DNA from: Escherichia coli
GTDB lineage: Bacteria; Pseudomonadota; Gammaproteobacteria; Enterobacterales; Enterobacteriaceae
Strand: one strand, 5' to 3'
Assembly (NCBI RefSeq): GCF_001677475.2
Contig: NZ_CP015229.1
DNA: 64,000 nt
Positions 1 to 54,172 of this stretch are shown piece by piece. A model generated the notes under the pieces. The model did not search any database. It was not told the DNA's origin and saw nothing but the letters and a program-made list of their open reading frames with translations. A program made the translations under genes and the position numbers. Position 1 is the stretch's first letter; each line of letters begins with the position of its first letter.

Positions 1-57
1 AAGAGCACTAATTTCGAGTACGCCCATCTGATATCTCTTGTTCCAGTATGTATCCCG

Positions 58-429
58 TCAGGCTCGGCGACCTTGTCGCGCCAACCAACGTGCAACAAGA
101 TCTTCCATTGCCTCTTTTTTATTTCTTAGTTCTTTTATGATCTCCTGCTGTTCATTATCAGGAAAAGCACTAAATATTTGTAGTAATTCCAATTGGTTAG
201 GGGTTAATGCCATAGATCTTGATGACGAAGATTCTGTTGTGTCTTCAGGTTCCATATCAAGATAACCCCCAGGCATCCCATATGTTTGCTCAATACGTCT
301 AGCTGCCTTTTCGCCAAACGTAGATTTACCGCTCATTAACTGAGATAAGTAACTTTTCTCTTTAGGCGGCAAAGTCCTGTCTTTGAACCACTCTTTGAGG
401 CGTAAACGCCGAATCTCTTTTGTTTCCAT
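58..429 (-). CDS. DicA/CI-like HTH repressor
   Basis: 123 aa; N-terminal HTH; C-terminal LTPNQLELLQIFSAFPDNEQ resembles DicA-type prophage repressors; divergent from a Cro-like gene. Confidence 0.7.
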   Translation of the reverse strand: METKEIRRLRLKEWFKDRTLPPKEKSYLSQLMSGKSTFGEKAARRIEQTYGMPGGYLDMEPEDTTESSSSRSMALTPNQLELLQIFSAFPDNEQQEIIKELRNKKEAMEDLVARWLARQGRRA

Positions 430-531
430 ACATTCATTATCTTTAGTAATTGCAAAACAAGCAAATACTTGACTGGTTTATTTAGTTGCGTATAAACTTT
501 CGCTTGTTCTAAATGTGCTGAGATAAAAATT
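430..531. promoter_or_regulatory. Divergent immunity-region promoter/operator interval
   Basis: AT-rich 100 bp between divergent repressor and cro-like genes; TTGACT -35-like hexamer and repeated TTAGT(A/T)..GC half-site-like motifs. Confidence 0.4.
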
Positions 532-819
532 ATGACGCTAAAGGAATTCATCAAATCATTAAAAATTGGAGAAGCAAAAAAATTTGCGACCAACCTTGGT
601 GTGTCTCCATCCTTCTTGTCCCAAATGGCATCTGGAACTTCACCTGTGTCTCCTGTTCGTGCGTTGATGATAGAAGCAGAAACTGGAGGACACGTTACAA
701 GACGCGAATTGAGACCTAATGACTGGGAGCTTATATGGCCCGAATACACTGGAATCACGTCCCCTTCACGTCACAAATATGAACTTAACACCAAAAAGGC
801 TGATGGGGTTGACTCATGA
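532..819 (+). CDS. Cro/YdaS-like HTH regulator
   Basis: 95 aa, HTH near N-terminus, first gene of rightward early operon, translationally coupled to next gene. Confidence 0.6.
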   Translation: MTLKEFIKSLKIGEAKKFATNLGVSPSFLSQMASGTSPVSPVRALMIEAETGGHVTRRELRPNDWELIWPEYTGITSPSRHKYELNTKKADGVDS

Positions 820-1241
820 TAATCAAGCATGAACACATCCGCATGGCGATGAATGCATGGGCGCATCCGGACGGTGAAAAAGTTCCGGCAGCTGAAATAA
901 CCCGGGCTTATTTTGAGCTGGGTATGACGTTCCCGGAGCTATATGACGACAGGCATCCGGAAGCGCTGGCTCGTAATACCCAGAAAATTTTCCGCTGGCT
1001 GGATAAAGACACCCCTGATGCGGTTAAAAAAATTCAGGCGTTGTTACCAGCTATCGAAAAAGCAATGCCGCCTCTGCTGGTGGCCCGAATGCGCAGCCAC
1101 AGTTCAGCCTATTTTCGGGAACTGGTGGAGACGCGGGAACGACTGGTGAGAGACGCTGATGATTTTGTCGCAGTGGCGATCGCTGGTTTCAATCAGATGA
1201 ATCGTGGTGGTCCGGCGGGAAATGCCGTGGTGATGCACTAA
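816..1241 (+). CDS. YdaT-like prophage protein
   Basis: 141 aa; N-terminal MIIKHEHI... and position after YdaS-like gene match the Rac YdaS-YdaT arrangement. Confidence 0.6.
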   Translation: MIIKHEHIRMAMNAWAHPDGEKVPAAEITRAYFELGMTFPELYDDRHPEALARNTQKIFRWLDKDTPDAVKKIQALLPAIEKAMPPLLVARMRSHSSAYFRELVETRERLVRDADDFVAVAIAGFNQMNRGGPAGNAVVMH

Positions 1242-1263
1242 AAGCACGGTGTTCGGGGGTTTT

Positions 1264-2232
1264 ATGAGCAGCAAGCTTCATGGTCTTGTCTGGGAAGGGT
1301 GCGCCTTCACTGGCATGATCTTATCCAGGGTGGCGGTTATGGCCCGTCTTGCAGACTACAGCAATGACGAGGGCGTGTCATGGCCTGCCATTGAAACTAT
1401 CCGGCGTCAGATCGGTGCAAGAAGTGAATCCACCGTGAAATCTGCTATTGCAGAACTGGCGAAAGAGGGCTGGCTGACGAAGGAAGAGCGTAAGGTCGGT
1501 GGGCGTAACGTAAGCAATATCTATCGGCTTAATGTGGAAAAACTCGAAGCAGCTGCAGCGGCGGCGCGTGAGGCATATAAACCGAAAAGAAAAATTAGCC
1601 CGGCAAAAAATGACCAGTTAACAGTTGACCAGTCAAATATTGCCCCATCAATGGTTGGCCCGTCAAATTTTGATGGATCAACTGTTGATAAAAAACTGCC
1701 GATTAGGGGGACGATGATTGACCCCGATCAGTCATTATTAAAACCTGATCCGTCAGATGAAAGATCTTCTTGTCCTGACGTTTCACTGCCGGACAAAAAA
1801 CAATCATCACCAGTTGAGCGATTTCTGGAGAAACACCCGGATGCGCATACCTGGAATGTGCAGAAGCGACAGTGGGGTACCCGTGAGGATGTCGCCTGTG
1901 CGCAGTGGATTTGGGGACGGGTTGTTGCGTTGTATGAACAGGCCGCCAGTGATGATGGTGAGGTATCACGCCCCAGAGAACCTAACTGGACGACCTGGGC
2001 GAATGATGTGCGCATGATGCGTATGCTGGATGGACGTAGTCACCGGCAGATTTGTGAAATGTTTGGGCGTGTCCAGCGGGATTCGTTCTGGGTAAAAAAC
2101 ATCATGAGTCCGGCAAAACTCCGGGAAAAATGGGATGAGCTGGTTATTCGTCTGGGGCGTTCGCCTGTACAGCGTTGCGTGAATCACATTTCTGAACCGG
2201 ATACCGAAATTCCGCCGGGGTTCAGGGGGTAA
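1264..2232 (+). CDS. Phage replication initiation protein (HTH, O-like)
   Basis: N-terminal winged-HTH segment typical of phage replication initiators; ATG at 1264 inside ORF 1249..2232; position after cro-like genes. Confidence 0.55.
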   Translation: MSSKLHGLVWEGCAFTGMILSRVAVMARLADYSNDEGVSWPAIETIRRQIGARSESTVKSAIAELAKEGWLTKEERKVGGRNVSNIYRLNVEKLEAAAAAAREAYKPKRKISPAKNDQLTVDQSNIAPSMVGPSNFDGSTVDKKLPIRGTMIDPDQSLLKPDPSDERSSCPDVSLPDKKQSSPVERFLEKHPDAHTWNVQKRQWGTREDVACAQWIWGRVVALYEQAASDDGEVSRPREPNWTTWANDVRMMRMLDGRSHRQICEMFGRVQRDSFWVKNIMSPAKLREKWDELVIRLGRSPVQRCVNHISEPDTEIPPGFRG

Positions 2233-2274
2233 GTGCTGATTTGAGGTCATGAAGTTATTTTCTCAGGAGAGTTT

Positions 2275-2676
2275 ATGGGGGCTATTTATACCGAAGAACA
2301 GCGGGAAAGGTTACAGCGTCACATCGTTGACCTTGTACGTAAAAACGGGCGTATGACAATGCCACAACTGGCATCGGCAACATATGCTTCACATGATTCC
2401 ATTCGCCGGTACCTGAAGATGCTGGTGAGCCAGGGCGAAGTGTATGTTGTCAGCGGAAAAGGGGTATTCCTTTCAGAGAGAGTTTACCGTGAATGGCTGG
2501 CAAGTTCGGCAAAAAAATCAAGGGTTATCCGCAAACCAGCACAAAAACAGGGTAAGGCCGGAGTACAACCCTACGACCGGCACCAGAACGTAATTTGCCG
2601 GGAATGTCGTAACAGCGAATCAATGCAGCGGGTACTGGCTTTTTACAGGGGTGGATTTCAGGAGCTCGTATCGTGA
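2275..2676 (+). CDS. Hypothetical protein (possible DNA-binding)
   Basis: 133 aa ORF with RBS-like AGGAGAG upstream; no recognisable motif. Confidence 0.45.
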   Translation: MGAIYTEEQRERLQRHIVDLVRKNGRMTMPQLASATYASHDSIRRYLKMLVSQGEVYVVSGKGVFLSERVYREWLASSAKKSRVIRKPAQKQGKAGVQPYDRHQNVICRECRNSESMQRVLAFYRGGFQELVS

Positions 2677-2981
2677 AAAAGTGGGTGCGTGCCGAGATAC
2701 TGATTCTACGGCAGTGTGCGGGAACAATGACGGTGGAATGCATCGGGATGCTTATTGGTCGTAGTGAGGCTGCGGTCAGAACGAAAGCGCGGGAACTGGG
2801 TATTAGTATGATGTTACGGGGTGATTATCACCAGTCAGCAAAATATCCGCAGAGTGATATTGAGCTGGCGCGACAGCTGCATCAGCGTGGCGTGTCCAGG
2901 AGAGAAATCGCCAGAAAATTTGGAATGCCGCTGCGCACAGTGAATAACTACGTTTATTTCGACAGGAGGGTGTCTGCGTGA
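2673..2981 (+). CDS. Hypothetical HTH protein
   Basis: 102 aa, overlapping start/stop with neighbours; HTH-like segment. Confidence 0.4.
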   Translation: MKKWVRAEILILRQCAGTMTVECIGMLIGRSEAAVRTKARELGISMMLRGDYHQSAKYPQSDIELARQLHQRGVSRREIARKFGMPLRTVNNYVYFDRRVSA

Positions 2982-3223
2982 AAATCCTGTATCAGGATTA
3001 CGGCCCGGTGGGACAGGTGGTTATCAGCAGTACTGTAATGGAGTTCCGGAAGCATAACCGTGTGGTGGATGCAGTGCTGTTAGCCTGTCCGGGGATATCG
3101 GCGAGCCGTGCAGGTGTGTTTTTTATGAAGACGAAGTTATATGGCAGTACAGCGTGGATAAAGAAGGCGTACCGGGTAGCGTTGCAGGAGGTAAACAGTG
3201 AGCGAATCGGCAACCATTCTTGA
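2978..3223 (+). CDS. Hypothetical protein
   Basis: 81 aa ORF translationally coupled in the operon. Confidence 0.3.
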   Translation: MKILYQDYGPVGQVVISSTVMEFRKHNRVVDAVLLACPGISASRAGVFFMKTKLYGSTAWIKKAYRVALQEVNSERIGNHS

Positions 3224-49692: not shown

Positions 49693-49704
49693 TGTGGGGT
49701 GAAT

Positions 49705-51801
49705 ATGGCAGTAAAGATTTCAGGTGTCCTGAAAGACGGAGCGGGTGAGCCTGTCGTAAACTGTGCGATTGAATTGCGTGCCAGAAGAACCAGTCCGACA
49801 GTTGTGGTTAATATTGTGGCAACCTGTCTTACGGGAAGTGATGGCGGGTATACTATTAATGCTGAGCCGGGATTTTATGATGTATTTTTGTCCCGCACAG
49901 GGCATCCTCCTGTAAAGGCGGGGGAAATTTATGTTGCACCGACAGATGAGCCGGATACGCTGAATGCTTTTCTGGATGCACCAAAGGAGGGTGATTTACG
50001 CCCTGAGGTAATGAAGCGTTTTGAGGAAATGGTAAATACCGTTGTTCGCTTGTCTGAGCAGGTGGTCAGTGACAGGGAGAGAGCAGAAACAGCTGCTGAT
50101 GATGCAATTAATGCAGCAACATCTGCGGCGGGTAGTAAGGATGAGGCAGAAGAGCTAAAAAATCAGACACAGCAGAGCGCCGAAGCTGCAGCCGGAAACG
50201 CACAGCAGACGGCACAGGATGTGACGACAACCGCAACGGCCCGTGATGATGCGGAACGTTTTGCGAATGAGGCTGAAAACAGCGCACAGTCATCAGGCAC
50301 AGCGCGGGACGAATCAGTCGATGCCGCCGAACGCGCCCGCCTTTATCATAATGCCGCATCAGCAGCAGCGACCAGTTCAGAACTGTCGGCAAATGCGGCG
50401 CTGGGGCACAAAAACAGTGCCGCCGAATACGCCCGACAGGCTAAAGCCAGCCAGGATGCAGGTGCAGACAATGCGCAGGAAGCGAAACAGTTCAGGGATG
50501 AGGCACAGCAGATTGTTGATGACCTGAATGCAACAAATGCCAGCACGACAGAAAAAGGTCTGGTGCAACTCTGTAGTGATACGGACAACGACAGCGAGGA
50601 ACTGGCTGCCACGCCAAAGGCTGTCAGACTCGTCATGGACGAGACGAAAACAAAAGCGCCACTGGACAGCCCGGCTTTCACCGGCATCCCAACCACCCCA
50701 ACCCCACCGGATGATGCCGCCGGTCTGGAAGCAGCGAACGCAGCGTTTGTGCGCAAACTGCTTGCTGCGCTGGTTGGCTCATCGCCGGAAGTTCTGGACA
50801 CCCTGAACGAACTGGCAGCGGCGCTGGGCAATGACCCGGAGTTTGCGACCTCAATCATGAATGCGCTGGCAGGCAAACAACCGCTTAATGACGTCTTAAC
50901 GGCAATCAGCGCACTGACGCAACGGTCAGATAATCTTCTGTACTTCAATACGGACGGGAATGCCTCACTGTCTCTGCTGTCAGAGAAGGGCCGCGCATTA
51001 CTGGCGCATGACACAGCTGAAGCCATGCGCACGGAGCTTGAGCTGAAAGCAGCTGCGACGATGGAACCCCAGAGTGATATTCGCGACCGCACATCCGGCA
51101 GGCTGGCGCTGTCCGGGATGTATGGGTTTGGACAGGCATTCACCAGCGCCGACGCTCTGTCATTTAACGGACAGGCTGATTTCGTTGAGTGGTTGAAGAA
51201 AGTCACGCCGGGGCGGTATGCGGTCAGTATTACAGACTCCTCGCAACTGCTTACCGGTACCACGCAATTTAACGGCATTATTGATGTGATGTGGTCACCG
51301 TACGCCAACAGTGAATCTGATACAGTCCGCAAATTTAAAACCCTGATGTGTTACAACCAGTATTATCAGGGTGAACACTGTATTCACTATATGCAGTACC
51401 GGTACAACGACAGTGATAACAGCTGGAACATGTCATCGCGGGTAGTTGTATACGACGGAGATTCTCTCGCTTATTTATTATCGCGGTTATCCGGTAATGG
51501 TCCGTTCTCATATTACCAATACCCGGCCGTCGGTGTGCCGATTATGGCGGTATATCAGGGAGAAAGTTTTGGTGAAAATGCTTCTCTGGGACTCGGTGAT
51601 ACTGTGCCGGGTTCCCGTCTTGGTCCTCTGGCCATGAGTGCACCGGTTAGTGATACAGGGACATACGCATCCTCACCGCAGGTTGTGATTGGCGGTGCCG
51701 GTGAATACAACTTCCCCGGTCGTTACATGGCGCTTTCGGGCTTAGGTAACAATTATGGTACTCAGCGTGGCTTTATCGGTCTTTTTGTACGCATTGAGTA
51801 A
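49705..51801 (+). CDS. Side tail fibre protein
   Basis: About 698 aa; conserved N-terminal tail-fibre domain, long Ala-rich repeat shaft, distinct C-terminal domain; followed by Tfa. Confidence 0.65.
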   Translation: MAVKISGVLKDGAGEPVVNCAIELRARRTSPTVVVNIVATCLTGSDGGYTINAEPGFYDVFLSRTGHPPVKAGEIYVAPTDEPDTLNAFLDAPKEGDLRPEVMKRFEEMVNTVVRLSEQVVSDRERAETAADDAINAATSAAGSKDEAEELKNQTQQSAEAAAGNAQQTAQDVTTTATARDDAERFANEAENSAQSSGTARDESVDAAERARLYHNAASAAATSSELSANAALGHKNSAAEYARQAKASQDAGADNAQEAKQFRDEAQQIVDDLNATNASTTEKGLVQLCSDTDNDSEELAATPKAVRLVMDETKTKAPLDSPAFTGIPTTPTPPDDAAGLEAANAAFVRKLLAALVGSSPEVLDTLNELAAALGNDPEFATSIMNALAGKQPLNDVLTAISALTQRSDNLLYFNTDGNASLSLLSEKGRALLAHDTAEAMRTELELKAAATMEPQSDIRDRTSGRLALSGMYGFGQAFTSADALSFNGQADFVEWLKKVTPGRYAVSITDSSQLLTGTTQFNGIIDVMWSPYANSESDTVRKFKTLMCYNQYYQGEHCIHYMQYRYNDSDNSWNMSSRVVVYDGDSLAYLLSRLSGNGPFSYYQYPAVGVPIMAVYQGESFGENASLGLGDTVPGSRLGPLAMSAPVSDTGTYASSPQVVIGGAGEYNFPGRYMALSGLGNNYGTQRGFIGLFVRIE

Positions 51802-52400
51802 TGAGGAAATCAGGCATGAAAATCAGAGCGGTGAAAGGCATCAGAAACGCACATTATCTTGAAAATGGTGCGATTGACTGCGAGGTGTTATTTGAAGGTG
51901 AAACGGAGTTCGCCATGTATACCGCCATACAGGATGATACAGCCCCGACAGGCCAGCACATCTGGCAGGAGCTGCAAAGCGGGAAATGGGGCGAAATCGT
52001 CCCGTTCACCGTCACGCCTGAACTTATTGCAGCGGCAAAGGATGCCAAAAGGCGGGAGATTGAGGCATGGCGCGACAGTCAGGAAAACGTTGAGTTTATT
52101 TTCACGTTTGATGGTCGTCGTTTTGATGGTGGAAAAACCTCGCAGTCACGCCTTGCGCCCGTGGTTGCAACAGCACAGGCCGGACTGCTTCCGGAGGGTT
52201 TTTTCTGGACTGATGCGGATAATAACAACGTCGTACTGACCAGGGAGAAACTTATTGCGCTGAACGATGCCATGATGGTGGCCATGGTGGCGGAGGGCTT
52301 TAAAATCCACGAACGTCAGCGGGAGATGAAAGAGGAGCTGAGTAGCCTCGAGGATTTACACTCAATCAGGAAGTTGCTCGTTAACTCAGAAAAAATTTGA
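51801..52400 (+). CDS. Tail fibre assembly protein (Tfa)
   Basis: 199 aa; immediately downstream of tail fibre gene; Tfa-like. Confidence 0.65.
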   Translation: MRKSGMKIRAVKGIRNAHYLENGAIDCEVLFEGETEFAMYTAIQDDTAPTGQHIWQELQSGKWGEIVPFTVTPELIAAAKDAKRREIEAWRDSQENVEFIFTFDGRRFDGGKTSQSRLAPVVATAQAGLLPEGFFWTDADNNNVVLTREKLIALNDAMMVAMVAEGFKIHERQREMKEELSSLEDLHSIRKLLVNSEKI

Positions 52401-52539
52401 GATACCAAAGACATCAAAGAGGTGCTGGCGGGAAAATATCGCAGATATTAAAAACTGAAAATATACCAATTGGTATACCAAGTTTATACCAAGAACCCAA
52501 AAAGCAAAGGGGCTACCATTTGGTAACCCCTTGATTATT

Positions 52540-52627
52540 TGGCGGAAGCGCAGAGATTCGAACTCTGGAACCCTTTCGGGTCGCCGGTTTTCAAGACCGG
52601 TGCCTTCAACCGCTCGGCCACACTTCC
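52540..52627 (-). tRNA. serT: tRNA-Ser (anticodon UGA)
   Basis: Reverse complement reads GGAAGTGTGGCCGAGCGGTTGAAGGCACCGGTCTTGAAAACCGG...GGTTCGAATCTCTGCGCTTCCGCCA; long variable arm; matches E. coli serT. Confidence 0.9.
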
Positions 52628-53053
52628 GGAATGACGCGCACTATAAACATCCCGATGCGGCGTGTAAACCCCTAATTTGTTTGTTTGCCTGAAAAACAGC
52701 CAAAAGAGCATTGATAGCATGAAATAACAGCAGATTGATCATTTCATCACCATGAATTCCTTCTCTTTTACTCGTTTAGCAACCGGCTAAACATCCCCAC
52801 TGCCCGGCAAAAAGAAAAATAGGTCCATTTTTATCGCTAAAAGATAAATCCACACAGTTTGTATTGTTTTGTGCAAAAGTTTCACTACGCTTTATTAACA
52901 ATACTTTCTGGCGACGTGCGCCAGTGCAGAAGGATGAGCTTTCGTTTTCAGCATCTCACGTGAAGCGATGGTTTGCCTTGCTACAGGGACGTCGCTTGCC
53001 GACCATGTGCGCCCGGTGTCCTGCCGGTGTCGCAAGGAGAAGAGACGTGCGAT

Positions 53054-54172
53054 ATGAATAACGAGGAAACATTTTACCAGGCCATGCGGCGTCAGGGCGT
53101 TACCCGGCGCAGCTTTCTCAAATATTGTAGTCTGGCTGCCACGTCGCTGGGATTAGGCGCGGGAATGGCACCAAAGATTGCCTGGGCGCTGGAGAACAAA
53201 CCGCGCATTCCGGTGGTATGGATCCACGGTCTGGAATGCACCTGCTGTACCGAATCTTTTATCCGCTCCGCTCACCCACTGGCGAAGGACGTCATCCTTT
53301 CCCTGATTTCCCTCGATTACGACGATACTTTGATGGCAGCCGCCGGAACCCAGGCGGAAGAAGTCTTTGAAGACATCATCGCGCAATACAATGGCAAATA
53401 TATCCTCGCAGTAGAAGGTAATCCGCCGCTGGGCGAGCAGGGGATGTTCTGTATCAGCAGCGGACGACCGTTTATTGAGAAACTCAAACGTGCCGCTGCC
53501 GGAGCCAGTGCGATTATCGCCTGGGGAACCTGCGCGTCCTGGGGCTGCGTGCAGGCCGCGCGACCCAATCCGACGCAGGCAACGCCTATCGACAAAGTCA
53601 TCACCGACAAACCTATTATCAAAGTACCTGGCTGCCCGCCGATTCCGGATGTGATGAGCGCCATCATTACTTACATGGTGACCTTTGATCGCTTGCCAGA
53701 TGTCGACAGAATGGGCCGTCCGTTGATGTTCTATGGTCAGCGAATCCACGATAAATGCTATCGCCGCGCTCACTTCGACGCCGGAGAGTTCGTCCAGAGT
53801 TGGGATGATGACGCTGCCCGCAAAGGTTACTGCCTGTACAAAATGGGCTGCAAAGGGCCTACCACCTATAACGCCTGTTCCTCCACACGCTGGAATGATG
53901 GCGTTTCTTTCCCAATCCAGTCTGGTCACGGCTGCCTGGGCTGTGCGGAAAATGGTTTCTGGGATCGCGGTTCGTTCTACAGCCGCGTGGTCGATATTCC
54001 ACAAATGGGCACTCATTCCACCGCCGATACCGTCGGTTTAACCGCGCTTGGCGTGGTAGCAGCGGCTGTTGGTGTGCACGCAGTCGCCAGCGCCGTTGAC
54101 CAGCGCAGACGTCATAACCAGCAACCTACAGAAACCGAACATCAGCCAGGCAATGAGGATAAACAGGCATGA
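53054..54172 (+). CDS. hyaA: Hydrogenase-1 small subunit
   Basis: 372 aa; Tat signal RRSFLK; Cys clusters for FeS; starts [16 protein letters not shown]. Confidence 0.9.

Follow-up and report, generated by a model that had tools for sequence, protein, structure and literature searches.

The closest described counterparts of the locus analysed here are the attachment site of phage lambda, whose attP is laid out as P1-H1-P2-X-F-H2-COC'-H'-P'1P'2P'3, and the class I mode of integration into tRNA genes, in which attP shares identity with its target from the anticodon stem-loop to the 3' end of the tRNA. Class I integration into tRNA genes is catalogued by Islander and has been shown for mycobacteriophage L5, and Williams is said to have assembled, in 2002, a catalogue of these anticodon-loop insertions. 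Islands and phages that reside in tRNA genes regenerate the gene and leave a displaced 3' fragment (PMC4383910, PMC1762012); at class I sites strand exchange falls in the anticodon loop of 7 bp, as mapped in other phages (PMC1762012), with subsites described as well (PMC4383910). The serT gene is itself a reported prophage site, tandem insertions included, in STEC CC119, O121 and Stx2f-positive E. albertii (PMC10132054, PMC8767318, PMC10673567).

We analysed a stretch of 64,000 nucleotides of Escherichia coli DNA (the window), and our results favor, with a probability of roughly 0.88, the reading that positions 52458-52627 constitute attR (B-O-P') of a lambda-like prophage that is inserted in serT and has an integrase of the Sp4/Evi lineage; in this reading the palindrome next to the tRNA gene would be a terminator and the repeats beyond it are likely arm sites (Table 1). 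An earlier, sequence-only reading had noted an ORF that ends at 52400, a tRNA-Ser on the opposite strand and a palindrome and repeated motifs between them, all of which are present, and its proposal of a prophage-host junction (attR) at the 3' end of serT is borne out. The last prophage ORF matches Pfam DUF4376 (4e-19) and PHROG 1141 'tail fiber protein' (9e-82), and its counterpart in strain N96 is annotated as a DUF4376 protein, making the label 'tail fibre assembly' plausible. The tRNA gene was recovered by ARAGORN as tRNA-Ser(UGA), scores 57.5 bits as an Rfam tRNA, is intact and has the same sequence as K-12 serT, as does its promoter-like site, which is unchanged. In an Rfam scan of 52200-53100 only the tRNA scored above threshold, a MicX match over 52447-52541 (18 bits against a gathering score of 75) being attributed to chance. 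A 45-aa TTG-start ORF that spans the interval (52397-52534, + strand) has no Pfam match and overlaps the terminator and the repeats, and it is almost certainly non-coding.

Table 1 Features of the prophage-serT junction; repeat positions are counted from the centre of the anticodon loop.
Feature	Position in window	Strand	Basis or remark
Tail fibre ORF, 700 aa, preceding the DUF4376 ORF	49699-51801		
Tail-fibre-module ORF (DUF4376, Tfa-like), last prophage gene	51801-52400	+	ORF list; 199 aa
Stop codon TGA of the 199-aa ORF	52398-52400	+	
Phage-specific spacer from last gene to conserved attP arm	52401-52457	.	57 bp
Degenerate fourth repeat copy, GATACCAA	52401-52408		within spacer
P' arm of attP (phage DNA): three repeats, terminator hairpin, IHF-consensus match	52458-52534	-	
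Candidate arm-type Int site P'3, TTGGTATA	52462-52469	-	+123
Candidate arm-type Int site P'2, TTGGTATA	52474-52481	-	+111
Candidate arm-type Int site P'1, TTGGTATA on tRNA strand	52485-52492	-	+100
Predicted intrinsic terminator of serT, phage-borne variant	52497-52532	-	
Terminator hairpin (predicted), AAGGGGUUACC-AAAU-GGUAGCCCCUU, then UUGCUUUUUGG	52507-52532 (hairpin)	-	
Palindrome GGGGCTACCATTTGGTAACCCC	52509-52530		
Candidate IHF site, AATCAAGGGGTTA against consensus WATCAANNNNTTR	52524-52536	-	consensus match
Identity block of attP (Evi) and attB (K-12): tRNA nt 29-88 plus AAUAA	52535-52599	-	65 bp
serT, tRNA-Ser(UGA), intact	52540-52627	-	ARAGORN; Rfam
Anticodon loop CUUGAAA between the halves of the anticodon-stem inverted repeat; candidate 7-bp overlap region	52589-52595	-	
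serT promoter-like site, native host side	52640-52668	-	promoter scan, 10/12 matches

The boundary with the host follows from the empty site. An MG1655 derivative has the order yccA-serT-hyaA without an insert, and the window is identical to K-12 at 512 of 521 positions from 52535 to the start of hyaA and at 1087 of 1102 within hyaA, while identity to the yccA-serT spacer drops to 71 of 140 positions left of 52535. By this comparison the insertion lies between serT and yccA, and the serT-hyaA side is native and undisturbed; the sequence left of 52535 is phage DNA. For the comparison with a prophage-free genome the informative spacer is yccA-serT and not, as had been proposed, serT-hyaA; the serT-proximal sequence, rather than being native with an unduplicated core, departs sharply from the empty-site allele at 52534/52535, adjoining serT, and the core is duplicated at the attL of relatives. 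Among complete E. coli genomes the serT side is matched by 5425 of 5426, and the match to the window breaks off near 52500 in prophage-free genomes and at 52458 in O157:H7 genomes.

Beyond that boundary the sequence, as far as 52458, closely matches that of a free phage. Positions 52458-52599 form one contiguous stretch (98.6% identical) in the free Escherichia phage Evi (LR597642), situated between an espV remnant and the integrase and flanked by the P arm and int. The order of the Evi attP is int stop, P arm, CGGTCTTGAAAACCGG...GCTTCCGCCA (tRNA nt 29-88), AATAA, hairpin GGGGTTACCAAATGGTAGCCCC, T-run and three TTGGTATA; in the phage, tRNA nt 29-88 run without a break into the P' arm that the window shows. 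Homology to Evi and to O157 Sp4 starts at 52458, identity between the P' arm and the right end annotated for Sakai prophage Sp4 is 97.4%, and in the RefSeq record of O157:H7 Sakai the feature 'prophage Sp4, lambda-like phage' ends at the base equivalent to window 52534. The window prophage is a member of this Sp4/Evi lineage, the ends of which are already annotated in the Sakai genome; a literature search found no report that connects Sp4, serT and O157. Like the window, Sp4 (Sakai) and Evi show insertion between yccA and serT, the hairpin variant, three TTGGTATA and a 60-65-bp serT identity block; beside the arm they carry espV/tccP2 remnants, whereas the window has the tail fibre gene, the DUF4376 gene and the 57-bp spacer. 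The P' arm (52458-52534) is found in 747 of the 5426 complete E. coli genomes; 47 genomes also have the spacer that follows the DUF4376 gene, and with it the complete interval of 134 bp.

Elsewhere in the window, positions 1-3000 (divergent HTH genes, YdaT-family, DUF977) reach at most about 95% identity over at most about 74% of their length in complete E. coli genomes; because the immunity/replication region has partial matches of this kind, we regard the window prophage as a mosaic that is not represented whole in the collection. The late-regulatory region carries prophage genes for tRNA-Met(CAU) and tRNA-Arg(UCU) at 10380-10631, as in many lambdoid and Stx-type phages, with an IHF-consensus match at 10336-10348, just upstream of them.

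Because the window opens in a cI/cro-like prophage immunity region and contains no second copy of the core (attL) in its 64 kb, the other prophage end lies outside it, and attL, int and the duplicated core were read from the same-site relatives N96, OkiPb01695 and Sakai. An integrase at that outlying end had been predicted, and in the same-site relatives int is indeed located at the far, yccA-proximal end. OkiPb01695 shares the 134-bp interval at 100% identity and N96 is 99.2% identical over 52380-52760. All three relatives have int, an excisionase-like gene (DUF4224/PHROG excisionase in N96 and OkiPb01695, an annotated phage excisionase in Sakai) and a 60-65-bp serT 3' fragment with the native terminator beside yccA. 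OkiPb01695 gives the arrangement for a single prophage, with the excisionase-like DUF4224 gene, the tyrosine integrase, the P arm, the 60-nt serT fragment, the native hairpin GGGGTTAGCTAAATGCTAACCCC and yccA in succession; Sakai Sp4 has the same far-end layout and an integrase 96% identical to that of N96, which shares the attR of the window. N96 combines an arrangement like that of OkiPb01695 with a second, decayed prophage in tandem, resulting in a hybrid att. At this N96 locus (NZ_CM169999; 9400-13500) the intact prophage is followed by a remnant with a Lom fragment, tRNA-Gly, tRNA-Arg and a truncated integrase, and the hybrid att between the two prophages has a third terminator variant and a single CTGGTATA.

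Two further records touch on this family of sites. PPompW-type prophages (LC567818, Stx2a phage/PPompW_14040; locus about 2400-2720) contain, next to espO, a decayed serT-type attP in which the tRNA 3' half is mutated and which further has a hairpin, repeats of the TTGGTATA/TTGGTACA type and an IHF consensus within a P-arm-like stretch, and this apparent fossil att inside another prophage suggests past recombination between lambdoid prophages. The attP of 'Stenotrophomonas phage vB_SmeS_BUCT708' (OM816834; locus 2500-2760) carries 59 nt that match the 3' part of enterobacterial serT perfectly, for which reason its Stenotrophomonas host label looks doubtful; here three CTTAGAATA directly follow the int stop codon, and int lies on the P' side in convergent orientation, unlike in Sp4/Evi.

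The att core had been sought within 52401-52540, and this placement does not hold: exact-match extension gives a 65-bp block identical between Evi attP and K-12 attB that lies almost wholly inside serT. The block is duplicated at the attL of N96 (65 bp), Sakai and OkiPb01695 (60 bp each). In the latter two, attL reads CCA-G and attR reads CCA-A, so that the direct repeat is exactly the 60 tRNA nucleotides; since this difference follows directly after CCA, the exchange must lie 5' of the tRNA end. The base after CCA is G at attL in Sakai Sp4 (about position 1590 of the locus) and OkiPb01695 (about 8210), A at attR and A in K-12 attB, indicating that the native allele varies among E. coli and that it depends on the host whether the direct repeat measures 60 or 65 bp. 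Where the phage arms are identical to the tRNA, this identity has its left edge at nt 29 in Evi and Sp4, nt 30 in BUCT708, nt 33 in the fossil copy of PPompW prophages and nt 34 in the N96 remnant, and all four variants of this edge keep the anticodon loop and its 3' stem. Because edges at nt 29-34 are the pattern of class I anticodon-loop integration, we place the overlap region in the 7-nt anticodon loop (52589-52595) as the most likely site of strand exchange; because attP and attB agree throughout the 65 bp, the sequence bounds the crossover rather than fixing it. The 5' 28 nt of serT are host DNA, and the 3' 60 nt, being part of the identity block, are nominally phage-derived, with identical sequence.

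The palindrome GGGGCTACCATTTGGTAACCCC, noted earlier in the interval taken as attR, is best understood as a terminator. It is imperfect; on the tRNA strand its sole mismatch can pair as G-U, and there the hairpin is followed by a T-run. A terminator scan describes an 11-bp stem with 6 GC pairs that starts 8 nt past CCA, a 4-nt loop and the tail UUGCUUUUUGG, and a 51-nt stretch with the hairpin folds at -24 kcal/mol (z = -3.8). K-12 has a hairpin at the same place, GGGGTTAGCTAAATGCTAACCCC, with AGC/GCU where the window has ACC/GGU, a compensated G-C/C-G swap. A strong hairpin with a T-run is present in 36 of 37 distinct serT 3' flanks (taken from the window, from the loci compared with it and from 48 IMG/VR stretches), with apparent compensatory changes in the stem, which occurs in the variants GGGGUUAGC/GCUAACCCC, GGGGUUACC/GGUAACCCC, GGGCUUACC/GGUAAGCCC and GGGCCUGACG/CGUCAGGCCC. 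The generic terminator scan over the 1.1-kb region found 2 terminators against 1.5 expected from shuffles, and because this does not exceed the shuffle expectation, the argument for a terminator rests on position and conservation. We therefore suggest that the palindrome is the predicted intrinsic terminator of serT, a phage variant that would replace the native one. Since the hairpin is not common to attP and attB, K-12 having the variant GGGGTTAGCTAAATGCTAACCCC, the palindrome does not belong to the core. Retroregulation of int by the hairpin, in the manner of lambda sib, was also considered; a similar terminator follows int in both attP and attL, so that integration would make no difference, and the idea was dropped.

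The repeated TACCAA motifs exist as described (starts at 52403, 52464, 52476 and 52487), although the real unit is larger, an 8-mer TATACCAA in three copies at spacings of 12 and 11 bp. Within the 64-kb window TTGGTATA/TATACCAA occurs 4 times, always within 52462-52492; shuffles give 0.95 expected occurrences for the whole window, and none of 100 shuffles reaches 4. The P arm of Evi and Sakai has one TTGGTATA in the same orientation at -118, and N96 has CTGGTATA there. Comparable arrays recur in other P' arms: a Salmonella contig has three copies (TTGGTACA, TTGGTATA, TTGGTATA) with other spacers, phage BUCT708 (integrase 54% identical) has three CTTAGAATA at +101/+112/+125, and IMG/VR sites have triplets of TTGGTATA, TTAGAATA or GAAGAATA in the corresponding position. 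None of these repeats occurs in native host flanks. Across the P' arms of IMG/VR and phage records there are 2-3 direct repeats at about +100/+111/+123 with diverging spacers and a lineage-dependent motif, and the layout is kept in more than 20 variant sites. P and P' share a motif class in 16 of 21 sites (Fisher p = 0.03, without correction for relatedness), and the 5 that disagree may be hybrids formed in tandem prophages. In five IMG/VR att-like sites the repeat class of the P arm (for example TTGGTATA or GAAGAATA) is not that of the P' arm; they could be either tandem-prophage hybrids or the sites of related integrases that tolerate both motifs.

The IHF consensus is matched in the P arm, at -91, and again at +56, the latter being one of 5 such matches in 64 kb against 2.4 expected. 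The +56 match is present in Evi attP and not in K-12 attB, owing to the phage-specific bases AATAATCAAGG where K-12 has AATAAGATAAGG. Situated between core and P' sites, as H' is in lambda, it is a candidate for IHF binding. Residues 1-318 of the N96/Sp4-type Int, taken from relatives of the window prophage, align with residues 1-339 of lambda Int (PDB 1z1b, 5j0n; E = 1e-16), an alignment that covers the N-terminal arm-binding domain. Given the positions of the repeats, the same 8-mer in the P arm and the full-length alignment with lambda Int, the three repeats are most likely P'1-P'3 arm-type sites, the predicted targets of the Int N-terminal domain. That this integrase has arm sites is expected, and we found no literature report of them.

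Three other explanations of the junction deserve consideration. That the recombination core lies downstream of the tRNA, within 52401-52540, and consists of the palindrome and/or the TACCAA motifs is suggested by the location of both elements between the last phage gene and serT and by the similar-looking K-12 hairpin at the same place (29 of 40 positions identical). Yet the hairpin sequence differs between attP/attR and attB/attL, every native flank is without the repeats, the exact identity block is inside serT, and in Sakai and OkiPb01695 attL and attR differ from the first base past CCA, leaving this placement highly improbable. A second proposal accepts the core in serT and reassigns the TATACCAA repeats to another protein (excisionase, Fis or a phage regulator) or to an operator-like palindrome, TACCAATTGGTA/TTGGTATACCAA. 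In its favor, the repeats here create two overlapping perfect 12-nt palindromes, the P and P' classes disagree in 5 of the 21 sites, and the arm-site assignment is itself drawn from sequence. The palindromes are lineage-specific, however: the Salmonella contig and the IMG/VR variants have three direct repeats with non-palindromic spacers, and because the 12-nt palindromes are not conserved elsewhere while the direct repeats are, the reading of TTGGTATACCAA as an operator for a dimeric regulator was rejected. Moreover, three helically phased, core-distal direct repeats plus one copy in the other arm reproduce the P'1-3/P1 layout of lambda, and the integrase has a lambda-like N-terminal domain. 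The lambda Xis sites are in the P arm and not in the P' arm, which speaks against an excisionase at the three repeats. We consider binding by another protein unlikely and retain the arm-site reading.

A further question is whether the junction still works. Many O157-type lambdoid prophages are defective, and the left end of the window prophage lies beyond the window, so that one could regard the junction as a relic, either the attR of a defective or immobile prophage or a tandem/hybrid site that no longer functions. Tandem arrays with hybrid att sites do occur at serT, both in N96 and in the literature (PMC10132054). Against a relic, the attR core and the three TTGGTATA do not differ from their counterparts in the isolated phage Evi, the late region in the window looks complete for a lambdoid phage as far as the tail fibres, and OkiPb01695, with its identical interval, has a single prophage with intact int and xis. 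Loss of function thus seems improbable to us, and an attR of an Sp4/Evi-type prophage remains the reading we prefer.

In our model of the site, the phage attP contains a copy of the serT 3' 60 nt, and next to this copy lie the phage's own terminator hairpin and three TTGGTATA as direct repeats. A lambda-Int-type tyrosine integrase would recombine this attP with chromosomal serT, the exchange taking place most probably in the anticodon loop, and integration would rebuild the tRNA gene from host 5' and phage 3' sequence, with the rebuilt gene being terminated by the phage-borne hairpin. The native serT 3' fragment and its terminator would be displaced by about 45-50 kb to a position beside int/xis and yccA, outside the window. 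The repeats P'1-P'3 would be bound by the N-terminal domain of Int and, together with the P-arm copy at -118 and the putative IHF sites at -91 and +56, would assemble the integrative and excisive intasomes.

It is tempting to speculate further that serT-targeting lambda-like integrases form a broad enterobacterial family with a composite P' module made of the tRNA 3' half, an IHF site that overlaps the terminator hairpin, and three arm sites about 100 bp from the crossover. In such a family the arm motif (TTGGTATA, TTAGAATA or GAAGAATA) would co-vary with the Int N-terminal domain, and the hairpin would play several roles, as the serT terminator, as the terminator of int transcription in attP and as an architectural element of the intasome. 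Taken jointly, these propositions are tentative and, as a set, rather doubtful; if they were true, the family would provide a natural specificity-swap series for arm recognition.

The main value of the analysis is precise annotation, the mechanism holding no surprises. The att arm is present in about 14% of complete E. coli genomes, O157:H7 Sp4 included, and serT is a hotspot at which tandem prophages bearing type III effector genes accumulate, as do Stx2f phages in E. albertii. Knowing att precisely is therefore of use in delimiting and typing such prophages. We would draw the right end of the prophage at 52534/52535 or, if the probable mechanism is followed, at about 52592 within serT; the appropriate label for the hairpin is predicted serT terminator and not att core, and the empty site is yccA-serT.

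Finally, we note that the locus is ordinary in kind, since a lambda att architecture on a tRNA target of the anticodon-loop class is already known. The Sp4-type relatives and lambda have homologous integrases with an N-terminal arm-binding domain, and both systems have three close direct repeats in P', a copy of the motif on the P arm and IHF sites on both sides of the core, identified here by consensus match. They differ in their target, which is the gal-bio intergenic attB for lambda and a tRNA gene for the window prophage, and in the length of the identity block, 15 bp in lambda against 60-65 bp here. The P' arm is also stretched relative to lambda: it measures about 135 bp, since the crossover and the P' sites are kept apart by the terminator hairpin and the 3' half of the tRNA, and its motif is TTGGTATA instead of the lambda arm consensus, with a predicted role in binding. 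As in class I integration, attP identity in the window runs from the anticodon stem-loop to the tRNA 3' end and the tRNA is regenerated while the 3' fragment is displaced, the displacement being seen in relatives; compared with L5, the crossover here is placed by sequence pattern. The position of int varies around this common plan: in the Sp4/Evi lineage it lies beside the displaced fragment rather than the regenerated tRNA, whereas in the related BUCT708 lineage it lies on the other arm.
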